Shown: piece after piece, positions 19,211 through 42,852 of the stretch | Layout: each line of letters opens with the position of its first letter | How positions within the stretch are numbered: position 1 is the first letter of the stretch | Assembly (NCBI RefSeq): GCF_000250635.1 | Contig: NC_016940.1 | Coordinates: 1,096,995 to 1,160,994 of the forward strand | Source of the DNA: Saprospira grandis str. Lewin | GTDB taxonomy: Bacteria; Bacteroidota; Bacteroidia; Chitinophagales; Saprospiraceae | Reading direction: 5' to 3' | Length of the DNA: 64,000 bases | Made by a program: the position numbers and the translations under genes | Notes under the pieces: model-generated | What the model saw: only the letters and a program-made list of their open reading frames with translations | What the model was told of the DNA's origin: nothing | Databases searched by the model: none

Positions 19211-20215
19211 ATGCACACACATTATCACATTCGACTTTCACAGGATGGGCAACTTTGGGCAGAATTTTCATTGCCCGAGGAGGCGGAGGCTAGTCTTTTG
19301 CTCAACTCATTAGAAACGATCTTGGACCTTTATCGGGAAGAGGACATTCATTTTTTGTTTAATGAGCGAAAAATCACGGCGGGGCCTGCGCAAAGAGAGC
19401 AGGAGCAATCCATTTTAGAATTGAGTCTGGCAGAACTTTGGGGAGATTTGGATGAGGCCTTATTGGTTTTGAACGGGCAAATTTGGAAGCTCTACCTTTT
19501 GGACCGGGCCTTAGAAGGGCCTGCTGAGCCGCAGCTTTTGGAATTGGGGCCGCAACTGCAGGAAGTTTGGCAGGAGCCGGCTTCTTTATTGGAAGAATTG
19601 ACCAATATGTTGGAAATGGCGCCTTTGCCATTGGAGGAAGAGGAAGACGACAACCCTTATACTGTTCAGGAATTGGCTCTTTTTCAGACCCAGATGGAAT
19701 TTAAGAAAATCCAGTTTCGTCAGTACAAAGCCTTGGGAGAAAGAGCCATGCAGCAGCTGCCCGAGGCCGAGTTATTTCGGCAATTTTCTGCTGATCAAAA
19801 CAGCATAGCCATTATTGTGCAGCACCTTTGGGGCAACATGCGTTCTCGTTGGACCGACTTTTTGAACACGGATGGCGAGAAAGACTGGCGAAACAGAGAC
19901 AATGAATTTGAGCTATACCTCAAGGACCGCAAAGCGGTGATGGACTACTGGGAAGAGGGCTGGTTGTTTCTTTTCAATGCGCTAGACCAATTGGAGGCCA
20001 AAGACTGGGACCGCAATGTTTACATTCATGGTGAGGAGCATTATGTTTGGCAGGCGATAGATCGGCAACTGGCTCATTATAGTTATCATATTGGCCAGAT
20101 TGTACTTTTTGCTCGCATCTTTAAACAAGATCCTTGGGAAAGTCTTTCTATTCCCAGAGGCAAATCGGCGGAATACAACCAGATGATGCGAGAGGAAAAC
20201 GAAAGAGAAGACTAG
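19211..20215 (+). CDS. Hypothetical protein with a C-terminal DUF1572 (DinB/YfiT-like) domain and a unique ~160-aa acidic N-terminal extension
   Basis: C-terminal half (MEFKKIQFRQYKALGERAM...HLWGNMRSRW...HYSYHIGQIV...) resembles the ~165-aa DUF1572 family as recalled. The N-terminal half has no recognisable family. Confidence 0.5.
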   Translation: MHTHYHIRLSQDGQLWAEFSLPEEAEASLLLNSLETILDLYREEDIHFLFNERKITAGPAQREQEQSILELSLAELWGDLDEALLVLNGQIWKLYLLDRALEGPAEPQLLELGPQLQEVWQEPASLLEELTNMLEMAPLPLEEEEDDNPYTVQELALFQTQMEFKKIQFRQYKALGERAMQQLPEAELFRQFSADQNSIAIIVQHLWGNMRSRWTDFLNTDGEKDWRNRDNEFELYLKDRKAVMDYWEEGWLFLFNALDQLEAKDWDRNVYIHGEEHYVWQAIDRQLAHYSYHIGQIVLFARIFKQDPWESLSIPRGKSAEYNQMMREENERED

Positions 20216-20328
20216 CGTTTGGGCGGGCTTATTCTGAGGAAGAAAAGGCCCGCTTTGCTATGATTTTTTTTGAAAAAGCTGGATATTGAGCAGTTGTAAA
20301 TGAACCTAGGCTGGAGGTGGAGACTTGA

Positions 20329-20730
20329 GCCTATAATAGCGCAGATGAGGAAATTATTCTGCTGGATAAGGTAGCCAAGCAAAAACTATTAACGGATGAG
20401 GAAATTAAATCCTTAAAAGCCAAGAAACTAATCGAGGGAAGAAAGCCCAACTTTCATATTTCCTCAGAAGTAGCTAAAGCATCGGGAGATAAAGCAAGGT
20501 ATATAAAGCAAAGAGGGATTGACGATAAGTTTTATGAACAGTTAATTATTCAATATTTGAATAAATTTCAAGTAGCTAGTAGCGCTGACCTTAAAAAACT
20601 ACTACTCGATAAATTACCTGAAATTTTAGCTCCCAAACAGAAAGAAAATAAAATCAGAAATATGTTGCAAAAGATGAAGCGCAACTCACTAATTAAGCTA
20701 AATGAAAACCGAGAATGGCAACTCGTTTAA
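20329..20730 (+). pseudogene. Remnant (C-terminal ~130 codons) of a RecG-like 'ATP-binding protein / putative transcriptional regulator' gene, with the N-terminal part deleted
   Basis: The frame is open from the stop at 20326 but has no start codon. The translation ...LIEGRKPNFHISSEVAKASGDKARYIKQRGIDDKFYEQLIIQYLNKFQVASSADLKKLLLDKLPEILAPKQKENKIRNMLQKMKRNSLIKLNENREWQLV* matches the conserved C-terminal HTH tail of that family as recalled. Confidence 0.55.
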
Positions 20731-20817
20731 TTTAAACGGGATTTAAACGGGATTTAAACGGGATTTAAACGGGATTTAAACGGGATTTAAACGGGATTTA
20801 AACGGGATTTAAACGGG
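20731..20817. repeat. Tandem repeat, 11-bp unit (atttaaacggg) x ~8
   Basis: tttaaacggg followed by (atttaaacggg)x7, directly visible. It begins at the stop codon of the truncated gene. Confidence 0.9.
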
Positions 20818-20934
20818 AAATTAATGCAAAGTACTGGAAATCAAAAACATAAGTCTCGTTTAATTTGGTTTAAAAAAATTTAATTTAATCGAATTAGCTA
20901 TTTTTAAATGATAGAAATTTAAGCCTCAGGAATC

Positions 20935-20946
20935 GACTAATTAGTC
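20935..20946. promoter_or_regulatory. Perfect 12-bp palindrome gactaattagtc in an AT-rich upstream region (candidate operator)
   Basis: Self-complementary dodecamer followed by the half-site-like aactaat, ~120 bp upstream of the 21066 gene. Confidence 0.3.
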
Positions 20947-21065
20947 AACTAATCAAAACATTTTTACACAAAGCGCTGTATTTTACTAGAAAATTAGGGT
21001 ATAATCATCCAATATTTTCATATATAGGCAAAGCAAAAATCAGAACCACCAAATATCAATGATAA

Positions 21066-21872
21066 ATGTCTACTAAAAAGAAACTACATATTCCCATCTT
21101 GGCCGATATGGCTGCTGCGGGCCAAGAGCCCGAGGTCCTTTTTTGGGTAGGTTGCGCAGGCAGCTTTGACGATAGAGCCAAAAAAGTAACTGTGGCCTTT
21201 AGCAAGCTGCTTTCGGCGGCGGGGGTAGAATTTGCCATTTTGGGCAAAGAAGAAAGTTGTACTGGAGACCCTGCTCGCCGAGCTGGAAACGAGTTCATCT
21301 TTCAGATGCAAGCCATGCAAAACATCGAAACGCTCAAGATGTATAATGTGAAGAAGATCGTGACGACTTGTCCGCACTGCTTCAATATTCTAAAAAATGA
21401 GTATCCTGTTTTGGGTCTAGAAGGGGTTGAGGTATTGCATCACACCCAGCTCATTCAAAGTCTATTGGCGGAGGGTAAATTGACTGTAGAAGGCGGTAGC
21501 TTTGCAGGCAAGACCCTGACTTACCATGACTCTTGCTACTTAGGTCGAGCCAATGATATTTATGAAGCGCCTAGAGCTATTTTGGAGAAAATTGATGGCC
21601 AATTGACTGAAATGCAGCGTTCTCGCTCTAAGGGACTTTGCTGCGGAGCGGGTGGAGCCCAGATGTTTAAGGAAAATGAGCCTGGTGACAAGCGAATTAA
21701 TATGGAGCGGGCTGAGGAAGTCATTGCTACAGGGGCCGACTATGTTACGGCCAACTGTCCTTTCTGCATTACTATGCTTCAGGATGGACTCAAAGCAGAA
21801 AATGACAAGCGCCAAAGTCCTATTATGGTCCTTGACCTTTCTGAAATGATTGTAGAAGCCAATAAACTGTAA
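21066..21872 (+). CDS. (Fe-S)-binding protein with two cysteine-rich CCG domains (LutA/GlpC/YkgE-like)
   Basis: Two CCG-type Cys clusters (WVGCAGSFDDRAKKVTVAF...CTGDPARRAGNE...TCPHCFNIL and CYLGRAND...LCCGAGGAQMFKENEPGDKR...NCPFCITML). ~268 aa. Confidence 0.7.
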   Translation: MSTKKKLHIPILADMAAAGQEPEVLFWVGCAGSFDDRAKKVTVAFSKLLSAAGVEFAILGKEESCTGDPARRAGNEFIFQMQAMQNIETLKMYNVKKIVTTCPHCFNILKNEYPVLGLEGVEVLHHTQLIQSLLAEGKLTVEGGSFAGKTLTYHDSCYLGRANDIYEAPRAILEKIDGQLTEMQRSRSKGLCCGAGGAQMFKENEPGDKRINMERAEEVIATGADYVTANCPFCITMLQDGLKAENDKRQSPIMVLDLSEMIVEANKL

Positions 21873-32439: not shown

Positions 32440-32595
32440 TTTTTGGGGCTGCCCCTGCGGCCTACGGCCTTGGGTCGGGCTGTTTCGCAGCTCGCTGATC
32501 GCTCGGCCCTGCGCTTTTTCACTACGTTCAAAAGCTGGGTCTGGCCTTCGGCCACTGCTGTCCATCCCTCAGCCTGCGGCGGCTTTGCCGCCTGC
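32440..32595 (+). repeat. GC-rich modular intergenic repeat, copy 10 (forward, variant B-like)
   Basis: ttttggggctgcccctgcggcctacggccttgggtcgggctgtttcgcagctcgctgatcgctcggccctgcgctttttcactacgttcaaaagctgggtctggccttcggccactgctgtccatccctcagcctgcggcggctttgccgcctgc. Confidence 0.85.
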
Positions 32596-32700: not shown

Positions 32701-32827
32701 GCGGCTTAGCGCTGCGGAGCGGGTGGCCGCAGGCCAGACCAAGGCGGCTTGCCGCCGCAGGGCCGAGCAGACTTGCGAGCCCCGCAGCATAGCGCCCCGC
32801 CGCCTGCGGCGGCGGGGAAGCCCCAAA
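32701..32827 (-). repeat. GC-rich modular intergenic repeat, copy 11 (reverse); forms an inverted pair with copy 10
   Basis: gcggcttagcgctgcggagcgggtggccgcaggccagaccaaggcggcttgccgccgcagggccgagcagacttgcgagccccgcagcatagcgccccgccgcctgcggcggcggggaagccccaaa. Confidence 0.85.
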
Positions 32828-34192
32828 TTAGTCCCTATGAAAAGGAAGCAACCAACTGGGACTACTAAAAAGCGCTGCTTTTTCTTGGGCCAAATTGACC
32901 TGAGGATCTACCAAGCGCTGGCTAGGGCGGCCATTGAGGCTGACCTGAGCGTCTAGATAAACCTCTGGGTTTTGATAGCCTTCTTCTGTTTGGTAATAAT
33001 TGGCCAAATAATGGGCAAACTGCAAAAGCATATCAGGTTGATAGGCCATCATCAGCTCCTGTTTTTCATTGAGATGGTCCAGATTATTGACCCAGCTCAT
33101 TTTGCCCGTTTGGCCATCGACTACCTTAAACTGAGCATAGCCCCTTTTCTCGACCAGCATGACCATCCAAGAAAAGCGGAAGCCCTGTTCCTGCCAAAGG
33201 ACATTGCCCGCATAGAGATGATGTCGCAGCGGAAAAAGCGCCTGAAAAAGCAGAAAAGACAGCAAAAAATAGCGTTGAAAAGGGGGAAGAACGAGCTCTA
33301 GTTTTAATTTAGACAAAGTCAAATTAAAAATTTGAGCAAAGGTAGCAATTATTTTTTCATGAAAATGGCTAGAGAAAAAAATTGTGGTGCAGGCCATCAT
33401 CAGGTAGGGAAAAATGCCGATATAGAAGAGGGCGGCGGTGGCTAGGTGGAAGCAAATGACAAAAAAGTAGGCATATTTTCGGCTTTTGGACCAAAGGAGA
33501 AAAAAGCCAATACTGAGATCGAAGGCGGCGCCAAAACAGGCAAAAATGGGGGGCAGCCAGCTCTTGCAGAGGAGAGGGCCAAAGATTGGAAAATCGGATA
33601 GTTGGCCCAGCCAGATGCGCAGAGGTTGGGCTAAAACGAGCCAATCGCTTTGCAACTTGGCCAAGCCGGCAAAAAAATAGACCAGCACAAAAAGCAGTCG
33701 GGGCGTCCATATATATAGAGCGGGAACCTTGACCAAAGTCACCGAGATCGGATAATCTAGGGAAAAAGCGCGATGAGCGGGCAGGATCCAAAGCAGCAGG
33801 GCTAGCAAAGCGACCAGGTAGTAATGATTGAGATAATGCGTCAGGTCCAAAAGCTCTACATAAGTAAAGCAAGCAAAAAAAATCCCGGCAGAAAATTTAT
33901 ATTTATAGCCTAGGGCGATACCGAGGCCAGCGGCAGCCATCAAAAAAAAGCAGGCATAAAGGGCTGTTGCGGGCAATTCGGGCAGCCAATGCGTACCCCA
34001 AAGGCGGAAGGCAAACTGGGGTTGGATATAGAACTTATCGACCCAGCCGAGCAGCAGCATTCGCAGAGAGAGCCAGCAAGCGATCAGGCCAAAAATGATT
34101 CTGAGGCTAATGAGGGGGGCGATACTTTTGGGTTGGTCTAAAGCGAGCATAAGGATGAATTTTATGGGCGCAAAGGTAGACAATAGGCGCAA
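32828..34192 (-). CDS. Polytopic membrane protein, HTTM-domain-like (vitamin-K-dependent gamma-carboxylase-related)
   Basis: Multiple predicted TM helices over ~280 aa (…YIWTPRLLFVLVYFFAGLAKLQSDW…) followed by a soluble C-terminal domain. The assignment is from recalled family features only. Confidence 0.45.
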   Translation of the reverse strand: MRLLSTFAPIKFILMLALDQPKSIAPLISLRIIFGLIACWLSLRMLLLGWVDKFYIQPQFAFRLWGTHWLPELPATALYACFFLMAAAGLGIALGYKYKFSAGIFFACFTYVELLDLTHYLNHYYLVALLALLLWILPAHRAFSLDYPISVTLVKVPALYIWTPRLLFVLVYFFAGLAKLQSDWLVLAQPLRIWLGQLSDFPIFGPLLCKSWLPPIFACFGAAFDLSIGFFLLWSKSRKYAYFFVICFHLATAALFYIGIFPYLMMACTTIFFSSHFHEKIIATFAQIFNLTLSKLKLELVLPPFQRYFLLSFLLFQALFPLRHHLYAGNVLWQEQGFRFSWMVMLVEKRGYAQFKVVDGQTGKMSWVNNLDHLNEKQELMMAYQPDMLLQFAHYLANYYQTEEGYQNPEVYLDAQVSLNGRPSQRLVDPQVNLAQEKAALFSSPSWLLPFHRD

Positions 34193-34473
34193 AAAAATGC
34201 TTGGGCCTAAAAAAAGAGAAAGAAAGCTCTATCTTATCTACTGAAAATAGAGAAAGCGCAATATTTCGCAATCCGTGAAATACTAGGAGCGCTTTTATTG
34301 GCGTTTTCCATAAGATCGAGGGCATCTCCCTCAGATTTTTAAGACAAAATTAACATATTTGATTTTTTCTTTTTAAAGTCAAGAGAGCCGACAAAAGTTG
34401 GTATCTTGAGCCGTACAGACGAATCACAAGACAGAACATTACCATTTCTTCACCTCTACATACTGTTAGTAGC

Positions 34474-35430
34474 ATGCGCATAGGACTACTTAGCTTTTGT
34501 TTGATGTTTAGCTTTGGGCTATTAAAAGCTCAAGCCGGTTATCAGCCCCCTTTTCCTTATGAAATTGGTCTTCAGATTGGGACCTCTCAATTTTTGGGTG
34601 ACCTTGGTGGGCAAAGTGAGGCTGGTCGCCCATTTATTCGGGACACCGATCTCAAGGCGATTCGCCCTTTAATTGGCGCTTTTGGGCGTTGGAATATTGG
34701 CCCTTATTTTTCTGCACGTGCAGATTTGAACTACCTTCAATTGGCGGGAGATGATGCGCTTGCGGGTAGTGGATTTAGTGGCGAGACACGTTCAGAGGAC
34801 CAAGCTTGGTATCGTTACTACCGCAACTTGAGTTTCCGTTCGCATGTATTTGAGGCCTCTATTGCTGGGGAGTTGATTCCCTACAACTTTGAGTTGGGTG
34901 GAGGTTATCAGAGCTATAGTGTGATTTCTCCTTATGGATTTATTGGGGTGGGTATTTTCCACTTTAATCCTCAGGCGCAGTATGATGGGCAGTGGGTAGA
35001 CCTACAGCCTTTGTCTACAGAGGGCCAGGGTTTGGTAGATGGTCGCACGCCTTATAGTCTTACTCAATTTAATGTACCTTTGGGCTTTGGCGTAAAATGG
35101 AATTACAACGATCAGTGGGCGCTTTCTTTTGAGGTAAACCACCGATTGACCTTTACGGATTACATTGATGATGTTTCTGTGGACTATGTTGATCCTCAGG
35201 TCTTCTATGATAACTTTGCGCCTGAGCAAGCGGCCTTATCTGCTGCTATGGCTCGCCGCTCTGTAGAGATTGATCCCGGCCTAGTGAATGGTTATGTATC
35301 GGCTCCGGGCGAGCAAAGAGGAGACCCCAAAGATAATGACTCTTATTATACGATTGCCCTTCGTTTTAGCTACTTCTTTGATGCTAACTCTTTGGGTGGC
35401 GGTCGTCGTTATGGTTGTCCCGTTTGGTAG
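34474..35430 (+). CDS. Outer-membrane beta-barrel protein (paralog of the partial gene at 1..523)
   Basis: Signal peptide MRIGLLSFCLMFSFGLLKAQA. Alternating aromatic/Gly beta-strand pattern. C-terminal region matches the 1..523 product. Confidence 0.65.
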   Translation: MRIGLLSFCLMFSFGLLKAQAGYQPPFPYEIGLQIGTSQFLGDLGGQSEAGRPFIRDTDLKAIRPLIGAFGRWNIGPYFSARADLNYLQLAGDDALAGSGFSGETRSEDQAWYRYYRNLSFRSHVFEASIAGELIPYNFELGGGYQSYSVISPYGFIGVGIFHFNPQAQYDGQWVDLQPLSTEGQGLVDGRTPYSLTQFNVPLGFGVKWNYNDQWALSFEVNHRLTFTDYIDDVSVDYVDPQVFYDNFAPEQAALSAAMARRSVEIDPGLVNGYVSAPGEQRGDPKDNDSYYTIALRFSYFFDANSLGGGRRYGCPVW

Positions 35431-35617
35431 ACTAAAGCCAGCGATGAATTGAAATAGAAAAGCTGAGTAGGTGAAAGCCTGCTCGGCTTTTTTTGTGGGG
35501 GTGTATATGTTATTTTTAACGCTTTTTGTTGTATATCTCTAGATATAGTTGTACTTTAGTTAAAATTCTACTTTTCCCAAAAGCTAAAAAACTCAAGCTA
35601 ACTGCTTATCGTTTAAA

Positions 35618-36139
35618 GTGCATAATCAAGCAGCAAAAACTTTATATGCTATGGATTTATCAATTCAATATGGAAGGTCTAAAAGTATATTAGATTCGCT
35701 TTCTGATGAGGCATCTACAGCATCTAGTATAAGTTGGATAGAGCGCCTGCTTTTAATTTTCATTATCAACAGAGTGAATAAAAAGCTCTCTAAATTAAGT
35801 GCTGGCATTGAGGCTAAAATTAGCTCAGAAAAACAAGCTAAAGAATACCACAAACTCTATTTGGTAGCCCAAAAGCTCTCTAAAGAAGACATTCAACTCC
35901 AAGCCTCTACTTCTTATCATTTTTTGGAGGGTCGAGTAATCAAAAAAGCCCTACAAACACAAAAGCTACTCCTTGAAATCAAGGAAAAATTAGCTGTAGT
36001 TTTATTTCCTACTCCCGAAAAGGTAGATCGAGCAACATTTTTCAAAGAGTCGAAACGCATTAAGGATTTTTTTGATGATTTAGATGATGAGGACACGGAC
36101 CAAGCCTACTTAAGTTATCATCCAGATTTACCTCAATAA
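35618..36139 (+). CDS. Hypothetical protein of 173 aa; candidate partner (antitoxin?) of the downstream MazF-like gene
   Basis: Lies in an AT-rich islet and its stop is 4 nt from the next start. Lys/Glu-rich helical sequence with no recognisable family. Confidence 0.45.
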   Translation: MHNQAAKTLYAMDLSIQYGRSKSILDSLSDEASTASSISWIERLLLIFIINRVNKKLSKLSAGIEAKISSEKQAKEYHKLYLVAQKLSKEDIQLQASTSYHFLEGRVIKKALQTQKLLLEIKEKLAVVLFPTPEKVDRATFFKESKRIKDFFDDLDDEDTDQAYLSYHPDLPQ

Positions 36140-36142
36140 TAT

Positions 36143-36493
36143 ATGAGTTCCTCCTTTGAAGTTGGTGATGTCGTCATCTGTGCCGTATTTTATGAAGAGC
36201 GTCTTGAAACCAAAAGACGGCCTGTTGTTATTGTAGAAAAATACAACGACTCAAGTTATGCGGTGAAAGTAACTAGCACAAATATCCCTAGGAAATTTCC
36301 TGGGAAGTATAAAGGGAGATGGATTGAAGAAGGAAGCGAAGCCTACAAAATGATGGGGCTAAGAAAAGCTAGTTTTGTATATCACCAAAATTCCGGCGCC
36401 ACAACAATAAGTAATGTTATGTTTACTCACGTAATTGGTCGTTACCCTTATATTGAAGAGCTTTTACAAGATCTTATAGAAGAAAATGTTTAA
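36143..36493 (+). CDS. PemK/MazF-family toxin-like protein (Kid/CcdB SH3-like fold)
   Basis: GDVVICAVFYEERLETKRRPVVIV...YAVKVTSTNIP...ASFVYHQNSGATTIS follows the MazF pattern GD(I/V)h.h.F.......KxRP.V(V/I)(V/L)S....h...VP(L/I)TS.........S.h....h..hD. Confidence 0.55.
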   Translation: MSSSFEVGDVVICAVFYEERLETKRRPVVIVEKYNDSSYAVKVTSTNIPRKFPGKYKGRWIEEGSEAYKMMGLRKASFVYHQNSGATTISNVMFTHVIGRYPYIEELLQDLIEENV

Positions 36494-36523
36494 TATTTTT
36501 CAGTGATAAAAAACAACACCTAT

Positions 36524-36556
36524 AAAAAAAAGCGGCCTTCGGGCCGCTTTTTTTCA
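36524..36556. terminator. Rho-independent terminator after the MazF-like gene
   Basis: A8-gcggcc-ttcg-ggccgc-T7 (UUCG tetraloop). Confidence 0.75.
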
Positions 36557-36667
36557 TCCCCCATCTCGGTATAACTTTGGTACAACTCCCCCTAAAAACA
36601 AGGCAAATCTAGGCCTTTTTCCAAGAGTACAGTAATGCGCAAAAATGGCGGATAAGTCCCTGACAGA

Positions 36668-36702
36668 TAGGCTAAAACAAAAAAAGCAGCTAGTGAAAAC
36701 TA
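36668..36702. terminator. Terminator hairpin immediately 3' of tRNA-Arg on the minus strand
   Basis: gcagctagt-gaaaa-ctagctgc stem flanked by A7 and ttttg. Confidence 0.6.
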
Positions 36703-36776
36703 GCTGCTTTTGTGATTCCAGCAGGACTCGAACCTGCAACCGTCTGCTTAGAAGGCAGATGCTCTATCCAGTTGAG
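36703..36776 (-). tRNA. tRNA-Arg (anticodon TCT)
   Basis: Minus-strand read: GGTTCCATAGCTCAACTGGATAGAGCATCTGCCTTCTAAGCAGACGGTTGCAGGTTCGAGTCCTGCTGGAATCA. This gives the acceptor GGTTCCA/TGGAATC, D-loop AGCTCAACTGGATAGAGC, anticodon stem TCTGC/GCAGA with loop cTTCTaa, and T-arm GCAGGTTCGAGTCCTGC. Confidence 0.9.
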
Positions 36777-36855
36777 CTATGGAACCAACTGCAGCGCAAA
36801 TATGGCAACTTTTAATCAATTGGCCAAATATTTTACCTACTTTTTTGAGCAAAGC

Positions 36856-37011
36856 CCCTCCCCCAGGCCCTATTGGCCCAGCGCTGCGGAGGGGTGGCCG
36901 AAGGCCAGACCAAAGCCGCCAAAGGCGGCTGCAGGGCCGAGCAGACCTGCGAGCCCCGCAGCATAGCGGCGGCCGAGCGAGGCGAAGCCGAGCCGGCCGC
37001 GGGCCCCAAAA
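36856..37011 (-). repeat. GC-rich modular intergenic repeat, copy 12 (reverse)
   Basis: cccagcgctgcggaggggtggccgaaggccagaccaaagccgccaaaggcggctgcagggccgagcagacctgcgagccccgcagcatagcggcggccgagcgaggcgaagccgagccggccgcgggccccaaaa. Confidence 0.85.
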
Positions 37012-37014
37012 TAA

Positions 37015-37560
37015 TTATCGAACAGAAGAACGAAATACCTGCTGGCCGTACTCCCAGAGAAATTTGAAGACCAAGAAAAAGAGGAAAAACGAAAGCCCAA
37101 TTTGCCAAAGCTTTTGAAAAGGAAGGACCATTTTGTGCATCAGCAAAAGGAGCAAACCCAGAGCCAAAGCAGCCGTGATGAGCAGTTCGTAGAGCTCGCC
37201 AAACCAAGGTAAGGCCTTCATTTTTAGGCCTTTTTTTCGGAGAATCATAAATACAATGACCGCCGAAATTAAGGGTAAATAATAGACGCTAAAACTTAGT
37301 TCTAATAGATTTTTTTGGTTCATCATGATGCTGTAGAGCCAAAACACCCCAGAAATAAGGGCCGGAATAGCCGTGCCATAAACCAAAGAGGAATACATAT
37401 AACCATAGGCGCTAGAAGCTGGCGATGGCCCCGAAATAATATTGAGCAATAAAGCCATAAATGGCAACAGCAAAAAGTAAAAGAAGAGGGCCACGGGGTC
37501 CTGATGAAGCAAGGCAATGAGTTCTTCGATCTGCATAATTTTGGGAATGGATTTTGGCAA
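37015..37560 (-). CDS. Hypothetical integral membrane protein
   Basis: Five or more hydrophobic helices (LLLPFMALLLNII...; AIPALISGVFWLYSIMM...; LPLISAVIVFMIL...; LITAALALGLLLLLM...; IGLSFFLFFLVF). No family recognised. Confidence 0.45.
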   Translation of the reverse strand: MPKSIPKIMQIEELIALLHQDPVALFFYFLLLPFMALLLNIISGPSPASSAYGYMYSSLVYGTAIPALISGVFWLYSIMMNQKNLLELSFSVYYLPLISAVIVFMILRKKGLKMKALPWFGELYELLITAALALGLLLLLMHKMVLPFQKLWQIGLSFFLFFLVFKFLWEYGQQVFRSSVR

Positions 37561-39210: not shown

Positions 39211-39370
39211 TTTTGGGGCCTCAGCTGCGCTGCGCTTGCTGCGCTACGTTTCGGGGCTCGCAGGCTTGCTCGGCCCTTCAGTGCTGCGCACTTCGGTCTG
39301 GCCTGACGGCCACCCCTACACATCGCTAGGCCATCTGGCCTGACGGCCAAGGCGGCTGCGCCGCCTATCC
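39211..39370 (+). repeat. GC-rich modular intergenic repeat, copy 13 (forward, with a 3' extension)
   Basis: ttttggggcctcagctgcgctgcgcttgctgcgctacgtttcggggctcgcaggcttgctcggcccttcagtgctgcgcacttcggtctggcctgacggccacccctacacatcgctaggcc + atctggcctgacggccaaggcggctgcgccgcc. Confidence 0.85.
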
Positions 39371-41117: not shown

Positions 41118-41267
41118 AGCAGGGCGCGAAGCGCCCGCAGGCTGAGCTGCCGAAGCAGGGCCGCCGAAGGCGGCAGACCAAAGCGCTGAAAGCGCTGCAG
41201 GGCCGAGCAAACCTGCGAGCTGCGAAGTGGAGCGACCCGACCAAAGGAAGGGGCAGCCCCAAAAAAA
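41118..41267 (-). repeat. GC-rich modular intergenic repeat, copy 14 (reverse, variant B)
   Basis: cagggcgcgaagcgcccgcaggctgagctgccgaagcagggccgccgaaggcggcagaccaaagcgctgaaagcgctgcagggccgagcaaacctgcgagctgcgaagtggagcgacccgaccaaaggaaggggcagccccaaaaaaa. Confidence 0.85.
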
Positions 41268-42681: not shown

Positions 42682-42832
42682 TTTTTTTGGGGCTGCCCCA
42701 GCCTTTGGCTGGGTCGGGCTGTATCGCAGCTCGCTATTCGCTCGGCCCTGCGCTTTTTCGCTAGGCTCAAAAGCTAGGTCTGGCCTTCGGCCACTGCTGT
42801 CCATCCCTCAGCCTGCGGGCGCTTCGCGCCCT
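42682..42832 (+). repeat. GC-rich modular intergenic repeat, copy 15 (forward, variant B)
   Basis: ttttttttggggctgccccagcctttggctgggtcgggctgtatcgcagctcgctattcgctcggccctgcgctttttcgctaggctcaaaagctaggtctggccttcggccactgctgtccatccctcagcctgcgggcgcttcgcgccctg. Confidence 0.85.
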
Positions 42833-42852
42833 GTCCCCTGCAATTGGACCAA

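Follow-up and report, generated by a model that had tools for sequence, protein, structure and literature searches.

A divergent MazF/PemK-fold gene and its long upstream partner form a putative toxin-antitoxin-like cassette in Saprospira grandis

Introduction

Few bacterial RNases have been studied as well as the MazF toxins, whose antitoxins are textbook small DNA-binding proteins. In the MazE-MazF, Kis-Kid and PemI-PemK pairs (PF02452) the partner is encoded first and the toxin, a protein of about 110 amino acids (aa) with an Arg/Thr catalytic pair, second and tightly coupled to it; the classical mazEF antitoxin has about 70-100 aa, an N-terminal AbrB, ribbon-helix-helix, helix-turn-helix or Phd domain, and is autoregulating. 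Here, we describe a gene pair that shares the toxin fold, the catalytic pair, the toxin size, the gene order and the coupling with these systems, and that differs from them in the partner. It lies in the chromosome of Saprospira grandis str. Lewin, in a stretch of 64,000 nucleotides (nt) that was analysed as a whole (RefSeq assembly GCF_000250635.1, contig NC_016940.1, positions 1,096,995 to 1,160,994 of the forward strand; hereafter the window, to which all coordinates refer). The downstream gene (36143-36493, forward strand) codes for a 116-aa protein of divergent MazF/PemK fold, a predicted endoribonuclease; the upstream gene (35651-36139, forward strand) codes for a 162-aa partner and putative antitoxin. 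We think it probable that the two form a chromosomal type II toxin-antitoxin-like cassette with a new antitoxin family, the toxicity of the one protein and its neutralisation by the other being what such a cassette would imply.

MazE neutralises MazF by wrapping its disordered C-terminal region over it (PMC4803016), and an acidic C-terminal region is a feature that the Saprospira-type partner shares with MazE (PMC4803016). At 158-215 aa, however, the partners at the loci described here are about twice as long as MazE and longer than their toxins; by sequence, they lack the classical mazEF antitoxin's N-terminal domain, and most of them, unlike MazEF-type systems, carry a membrane-type hydrophobic segment. 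Antitoxins larger than their toxins, and known toxin folds combined with unrelated antitoxin families, are also found in the MqsR-MqsA, HicA-HicB and Panacea (PanA) pairs, and partner swapping is a general, documented property of type II networks (PMC4803016; PMC10440598). No sequence relationship of the partner to MqsA, HicB or Panacea/DUF4065 was detected with Pfam; moreover, the antitoxins of those three kinds of pair are soluble proteins, and two of them, MqsA and HicB, bind DNA, whereas the partners studied here mostly look membrane-associated and no DNA-binding domain was found in them. As for the toxin, the closest parallel is with the SMa0917-type PemK/MazF proteins, likewise a lineage-restricted and very divergent branch of the superfamily, which were recognised only via iterative profile searches and secondary structure (Makarova et al., 2009; PMC2701414). 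Those toxins are alpha-proteobacterial and have Phd-type antitoxins, whereas the subfamily defined here has its named sources in Bacteroidota and in a Chlorobi metagenome assembly, and has a long partner of an undescribed kind.

Results

The 116-aa protein is a very divergent member of the MazF/PemK fold

From sequence motifs, a reading of the letters of the window and of its open reading frames (ORFs), made without database searches (hereafter, the sequence-only reading), had called the 116-aa protein PemK/MazF-like, and its UniRef label is already PemK/MazF. A Pfam search with the protein gave no match to PF02452 even at E <= 1; nothing was found in NCBIfam, PADLOC or PHROGs, and nothing relevant among PDB sequences. 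The matches that such direct searches did return, to DUF6949, to the ectoine protein EutE and to myosin-binding protein C, were at chance level and were rejected as not meaningful. A word-indexed protein search recovered two S. grandis clusters only, with an NCBI S. grandis protein matching at 100% identity. Profile and structure evidence was needed because the direct Pfam, NCBIfam and PDB searches were negative.

An exhaustive HMMER search of 1.84 billion representatives identified 28 relatives of 98-131 aa, which define a subfamily of about 28 representative clusters at 50% identity. Their alignment has the consensus Y..GDVV.V.FP..E....K.RPAVI....C.IT.TNR...G.WI.KDS..GK.MGL..DSFI....IG..P., and 25 of the 29 subfamily members individually match PF02452 (best E 8.3e-10). 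The subfamily profile aligns with S. aureus MazF over positions 4-95, nearly the full length (E 1e-3), and retrieves 2,927 proteins, nearly all of them annotated as PF02452; within this set, the 23 subfamily members scoring at least 105 bits are separated by a gap from the next match, at 75 bits. In a profile-profile comparison, hhalign aligned the subfamily with B. subtilis MazF (89% probability, E 2e-6), placing R26 of the Saprospira protein on R25 and T44 on T48. R25 and T48 of the B. subtilis protein, like R29 and T52 of E. coli MazF, are the catalytic Arg and Thr/Ser of MazF endoribonucleases. T44 does not vary in the subfamily alignment, in which the conservation of R26 is at least 90%, and the Saprospira protein retains this predicted catalytic pair. 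An AlphaFold2 model of the toxin, built on the subfamily alignment, has a mean predicted local distance difference test score (pLDDT) of 90.1 and a predicted template modelling (TM) score of 0.83. When the PDB was searched with this model using Foldseek, 61 matches were obtained at E <= 1e-3, of which the best 50 were all MazF or MoxT/YdcE (probability 1.00, TM-score 0.61-0.72). These profile and model-based comparisons, which bear out the assignment made from motifs, indicate that the 116-aa protein is a MazF/PemK-fold protein, although a very divergent one. The sequence comparisons also make it an extreme outlier of the PemK/MazF family: it falls under the Pfam threshold of PF02452, and its subfamily has invariant residues of its own (G58, W60 and M71), every family-invariant position being kept in the window protein.

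The search also returned P0024, a protein of 1,048 aa with four weak toxin matches, considered as a candidate multi-MazF protein and dismissed, its only Pfam matches being scattered, sub-threshold and of coiled-coil type.

The toxin gene is preceded by a partner gene at every locus examined

The sequence-only reading had proposed that two genes on the same strand are tightly coupled, and this is what is found: both ORFs share a frame and meet at a TAA-TAT-ATG junction with a gap of 3 nt. The upstream gene had been given a length of 173 aa, corresponding to the listed ORF at 35618-36139, which begins with GTG. That ORF is present, but translation most likely starts at ATG 35651, giving 162 rather than 173 aa, since the same start is used in other S. 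grandis gene calls and since the nearest foreign homologue (from locus L037, below) aligns from its own Met1.

Whether the pair occurs together elsewhere had been named as a check. At 12 of 12 distinct loci with the toxin subfamily, namely the Saprospira locus and eleven from other organisms, a partner-like ORF of 158-215 aa without Pfam match lies directly upstream on the same strand. At the other eleven loci, partner and toxin genes overlap by no more than 1 nt or are separated by up to 12 nt, apart from a single gap called at +43 nt. The partner has 171 aa in Fulvivirga kasyanovii (L005), 198 aa in a Chlorobi genome assembled from a metagenome (L011), 161 and 158 aa in two NCBI genome assemblies (L012 and L013, respectively), 191 and 165 aa in two read-archive assemblies (L035 and L037), 180 aa in a Tara ocean metagenome (L036, with a phage tail gene nearby), and 186, 215, 194 and 188 aa in other metagenomes (L007, L009/L010, L034 and L038, respectively). 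The named sources of the toxin subfamily are thus Bacteroidota (Saprospira and Fulvivirga) and a Chlorobi metagenome assembly. Metagenome scans with narrower toxin alignments returned nothing in a first round and one locus (L038) in a second. No homologue of the toxin was found by tblastn in plasmid or phage collections, nor in IMG/VR viral contigs.

Several of these loci have neighbours of interest. In L012 (1217-2383) the pair stands directly after a tyrosine integrase, and L007 likewise has an integrase close to the pair; in L036 (4518-6038) there is a gene for a phage tail tape-measure protein in the vicinity, and the conflict-system genes SMEK_N, MC6 and DUF2326 are beside it in L011 (4191-6315). 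The neighbours in L011, L012 and L036 suggest that the gene pair travels on mobile elements.

The upstream partners are homologous and share an acidic tail

As the sequence-only reading had supposed, the upstream gene belongs to no recognised family: Pfam, NCBIfam, PHROG, PADLOC and PDB gave no match, and a word-indexed protein search with the partner recovered Saprospira copies only. Its great length had also been thought unusual. The partner is indeed long and outside known families; it is, however, not an oddity of Saprospira, given that long partners stand at all 12 loci. The Saprospira protein is 32% identical over its full length (E 6e-13) to the partner from L037, the locus of the closest toxin relative, where the cognate toxins are 51% identical. 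With a hidden Markov model of nine other partners, the Saprospira partner ranks first among 5,349 controls (window ORFs and shuffled sequences) and is aligned colinearly over its residues 34-150. An hhalign comparison of a Saprospira and L037 profile with the profile of these nine gave 94.8% probability and an E-value of 5e-8 over 111 columns. By these sequence comparisons, the 12 upstream partners form one homologous family.

Common to the family are an (L/F)(Y/F)P-x-P turn and an acidic tail with aromatic residues, of consensus F-x-(D/E)-D-W-(N/D/E)...D-x-Y. The net charge of the last 30 residues is -2 to -7 in all 12 partners, reaching -7 in Saprospira, where the acidic C-terminal tail reads FFDDLDDEDTDQAYLSYHPDL, the counterpart of the consensus is FFDDLDDEDTDQAY, and the segment past residue ~137 is KDFFDDLDDEDTDQAYLSYHPDLPQ. 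Near the N-terminus, nine of the 12 partners have a hydrophobic stretch of 25-35 residues with a central Pro; their 19-residue Kyte-Doolittle maxima are 2.37-3.44, and it is on this hydrophobicity scale only that a membrane location is predicted. The maxima of the Saprospira, L037 and L007 partners are 1.35-1.45 (Saprospira, 1.45), under the classical cut-off of 1.6, and these three probably have no membrane segment. No DNA-binding domain was found by sequence in any of the 12 partners with Pfam, and the family profile gave no meaningful match in the PDB.

A previous survey of type II systems was filtered by the absence of transmembrane segments in either component (Makarova et al., 2009; PMC2701414). 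On the scale used here, the Saprospira partner would have passed such a filter and the nine members with the hydrophobic stretch would not; most of the partner family would be hidden from that survey because of it. No description of the pairing was found in the literature on membrane-anchored antitoxins, on MazF with transmembrane partners or on Saprospira toxin-antitoxin systems. As far as the libraries searched and the searchable literature show, the partner family is undescribed.

Within the Saprospira partner gene, a perfect 14-nt direct repeat, AAAAGCTCTCTAAA, occurs at 35781-35794 and 35871-35884. In the read-archive assembly SRR28370020 (protein P0004, locus L004), the partner carries an in-frame deletion of 31 codons exactly between the two copies, possibly through natural slippage, possibly because the repeat collapsed in the assembly.

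The pair is maintained within S. grandis, with a variable toxin 3' end

The other sequenced S. grandis strain, DSM 2844, and two read-archive (Logan/SRA) assemblies have the pair at the corresponding site, with about 95% nucleotide identity; a third read-archive assembly (L004) has the shortened partner there, and its contig stops right after that gene. In the window and in three other S. grandis assemblies, neither ORF is interrupted. Relative to DSM 2844, the ratio of nonsynonymous to synonymous substitution rates (dN/dS) is 0.19 for the partner (7 substitutions) and 0.08 over the initial 79 toxin codons (8 substitutions), as compared with 0.05 for the neighbouring outer-membrane protein (OMP) gene. 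These values are consistent with purifying selection acting on both coding sequences, while being statistically thin.

A variable 3' segment (36385-36527, forward strand), delimited by blastn breakpoints and DNA alignment, takes in the final ~37 toxin codons and the 43 nt that follow; in the other S. grandis assemblies it is replaced by a version of about 55% identity, with flanks about 95% identical. The variable toxin C-terminus stays in frame and is similar at the protein level, and the partner tail is almost unchanged between strains. The segment looks like a localised recombination tract or a diversifying cassette.

The cassette occupies an AT-rich islet bounded by terminators and a tRNA gene

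The low G+C content (GC) of the region, noticed in the sequence-only reading, is borne out: it amounts to 0.362 at 35450-36699, against 0.471 for the entire window, and is the minimum among all 1250-nt windows of the 64 kb (mean 0.470, standard deviation 0.030; z = -3.6). The terminators and the adjoining tRNA gene reported with it were likewise recovered by terminator scan, RNA folding, ARAGORN and Rfam. At the left edge, the DUF6089/OMP beta-barrel gene that lies upstream (34474-35430) has its intrinsic terminator, a hairpin at 35456-35493 on the forward strand (RNA fold -24.8 kcal/mol, z -7.8) with a run of seven U behind it; immediately after it, the GC falls from ~0.46 to ~0.33. The z scores of the hairpins compare the fold energy with that of shuffled controls and range from -6.2 to -7.8 for the three terminators of the islet. 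An AT-rich leader (35494-35650, forward strand) is presumed, from a reading of its sequence, to hold the promoter of the two genes; within it lies a short palindrome, TATATC-TCTA-GATATA, at ~35533-35548, and promoter and operator roles are presumptive for both. A scan of the leader that does not cover Bacteroidota promoters found no promoter of the sigma-70 type.

Downstream, a terminator scan placed a bidirectional intrinsic terminator at 36525-36554, closing the two-gene operon (an A-run, GCGGCC-TTCG-GGCCGC and a T-run; RNA fold -19.8 kcal/mol, z -6.2). The right edge is formed by tRNA-Arg(TCT) at 36712-36786 on the reverse strand (ARAGORN; Rfam RF00005, 71.1 bits), the 3' end of which faces the cassette and is directly followed by the intrinsic terminator of the tRNA gene itself (36679-36711, reverse strand; terminator scan, RNA fold -18.1 kcal/mol, z -6.3). 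The spacer of about 120 nt between the operon and tRNA terminators (36558-36678) has no notable ORF and no Rfam match, and is only ~88-90% conserved between strains, compared with ~95% for the flanks.

The absence of an integrase, also noted earlier, holds for ~6 kb on either side, according to the gene list of the syntenic S. grandis locus (L001), and no att-like direct repeat of the tRNA 3' end is present in 34300-37300. A match of 16 of 19 nt between the partner gene (35735-35753) and the tRNA-Arg gene (36752-36770) was considered as an attachment-site relic and rejected, as it is short, lies inside a coding region and does not involve the tRNA 3' end; it involves the D-arm/anticodon-stem part of the tRNA sense strand and is probably due to chance. 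The site is occupied in all five S. grandis assemblies compared, in L004 as far as its contig reaches (the partner gene). In ten related, species-representative Saprospiraceae genomes the OMP gene is found at 61-71% identity, and tblastn and the family hidden Markov models detected no tRNA, toxin or partner downstream of it; because synteny is broken there, this comparison is not a true empty-site test. The low GC, the rare and patchy distribution of the family and the mobile-element neighbours of its other members point to a horizontal acquisition of the cassette. That the islet is a decayed island remnant at a tRNA hotspot, as had been suggested, is not established. For S. grandis, the cassette would be an ordinary small accessory module, probably foreign.

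Discussion

A toxin-antitoxin-like cassette with a new kind of partner

In the mechanism that we favour, the 116-aa protein would cleave RNA independently of the ribosome, using Arg26 and Thr44 of its predicted MazF/PemK fold. The 162-aa protein, whose gene would be translationally coupled to that of the toxin across the 3-nt gap, would be the cognate partner that binds and neutralises it; its family, not described before, consists of long (158-215 aa), probably helical proteins. By analogy with the disordered C-terminus of MazE on MazF, the acidic, aromatic tail of the partner may lie over the RNA-binding groove of the toxin dimer.

Several observations weigh against this proposal. We infer toxicity and its rescue from family membership and gene order. 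The toxin of the window matches no PemK model directly and, as an extreme outlier, could have lost its activity. By sequence, the partner shows no DNA-binding domain of the kind by which classical type II antitoxins are defined, and it is longer than its own toxin; its AlphaFold2 model, all-helical and built from a 3-sequence alignment, is of low confidence (pLDDT 43) and uninformative. The Trp of the tail motif, present in ten of the other 11 partners (that of L038 is also without it), is a Leu in Saprospira (FFDDLDDED). The estimates of dN/dS come from just 7-8 substitutions per gene. Finally, the site shows neither an att-like repeat nor an integrase, and the case for acquisition is made from composition and patchy distribution. 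With these points taken into account, a toxin-antitoxin-like cassette is still the explanation that we consider probable.

What has been defined is a rare MazF subfamily with an undescribed partner family at every locus examined. If the partner is an antitoxin, it would add a new antitoxin family to a partner-swapping network, pose the question of operon regulation in the absence of a repressor domain, and offer, in the conserved acidic DDW tail, a compact and testable motif. If most of the partners are truly membrane-anchored, they would couple an RNA-cleaving toxin to the condition of the cell envelope in an unusual way. One can go further and imagine, as a speculation that we hold to be unlikely, that the family represents a novel class of antitoxins or sensors tethered to the membrane: a hydrophobic hairpin at the N-terminus would be its anchor in the inner membrane, the acidic DDW tail would keep a MazF-type RNase at the membrane in an inactive state, and envelope damage, phage entry or turnover by a membrane protease would release the RNase, there being no autoregulation through DNA binding; the Saprospira, L037 and L007 versions would then be secondarily soluble.

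Alternative explanations

A role of the pair in defence is the alternative that best survives, although we regard it as improbable. It overlaps with a toxin-antitoxin-like cassette and differs in the role of the partner, which would be a membrane-associated sensor or tether that restrains the RNase in an abortive-infection or defence module, as opposed to an addiction-type pair; its removal upon infection or envelope damage would free the RNase. The hydrophobic segment of nine partners and the lack of a DNA-binding domain in all of them would suit such a role, as would the conflict-system genes, integrases and phage genes near other members (L011; L007 and L012; and L036, respectively). However, the segment places partners in the membrane on the strength of a hydrophobicity scale only, and the Saprospira, L037 and L007 partners have no segment of membrane length; the neighbours in Saprospira are housekeeping-type genes; and PADLOC-DB v2 matches none of the 29 toxins. 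With the partners, that library gave a single weak match, to PDC-M45B (E 0.012), which was seen in one of ten members and was rejected as chance. The sequence-only reading had mentioned a defence-system sensor as one possible role of the partner, and our analysis decides neither for nor against it.

Decay is much less probable. Here, the pair would be an inert remnant, its low GC a consequence of short genes rich in Lys, Glu and Asn, the toxin drifted past Pfam detection as a non-functional protein, and the proximity of the tRNA gene a coincidence. The lack of a direct PemK match, the sharp divergence of the last 37 toxin codons between strains, the 31-aa in-frame deletion in the partner of one assembly (P0004) and the absence of integrase and att repeat all fit this explanation. 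Against it speak the undamaged ORFs of the window and of three other S. grandis assemblies, the fifth (L004) showing only a shortened partner and then the end of its contig; the retention of the catalytic residues and of every family-invariant position; a dN/dS well under 1, albeit based on few substitutions; the variable toxin C-terminus, which remains in frame and codes for a similar protein; and the intact dedicated terminators.

Least likely of all is a reversal or change of roles, in which the hydrophobic upstream protein would be the harmful one (holin-like and membrane-damaging) and the MazF-fold protein a regulator, an antidote or a retired RNA binder: most partners do have a membrane-type segment, weak matches to Holin_BlyA (E 0.019) and 2TM (E 0.078) were seen, and in surveyed toxin-antitoxin networks predicted transmembrane regions typically belong to the toxins (PMC10440598), but those matches are isolated (each in one of ten members) and under the family thresholds, the subfamily has conserved the Arg and Thr that form the catalytic pair in MazF, the order of partner and MazF-fold protein is that of mazEF, and the Saprospira partner has no membrane segment.

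Other features of the window

GC-rich (~0.58-0.63) intergenic repeats resembling repetitive extragenic palindromes or miniature inverted-repeat transposable elements (REP/MITE-like) are found in both orientations at 32471-32594, 32751-32794, 36864-37007, 39242-39285, 41191-41234 and 42710-42833; one copy adjoins the 5' side of the tRNA-Arg gene, and the repeats are also present in strain DSM 2844. A second patch of low GC (0.37-0.39) extends over ~19650-21700 and includes a segment of ~850 nt (20216-21065) without an ORF of at least 80 aa and without an Rfam match. Upstream of the cassette, at 32828-34192 on the reverse strand, lies a gene for a bacterial homologue of vitamin-K-dependent gamma-carboxylase (HTTM and VKGC lumenal domain, E 1e-67 and 1e-51, respectively); it adjoins the DUF6089 OMP gene, as it also does in two related Saprospiraceae genomes.

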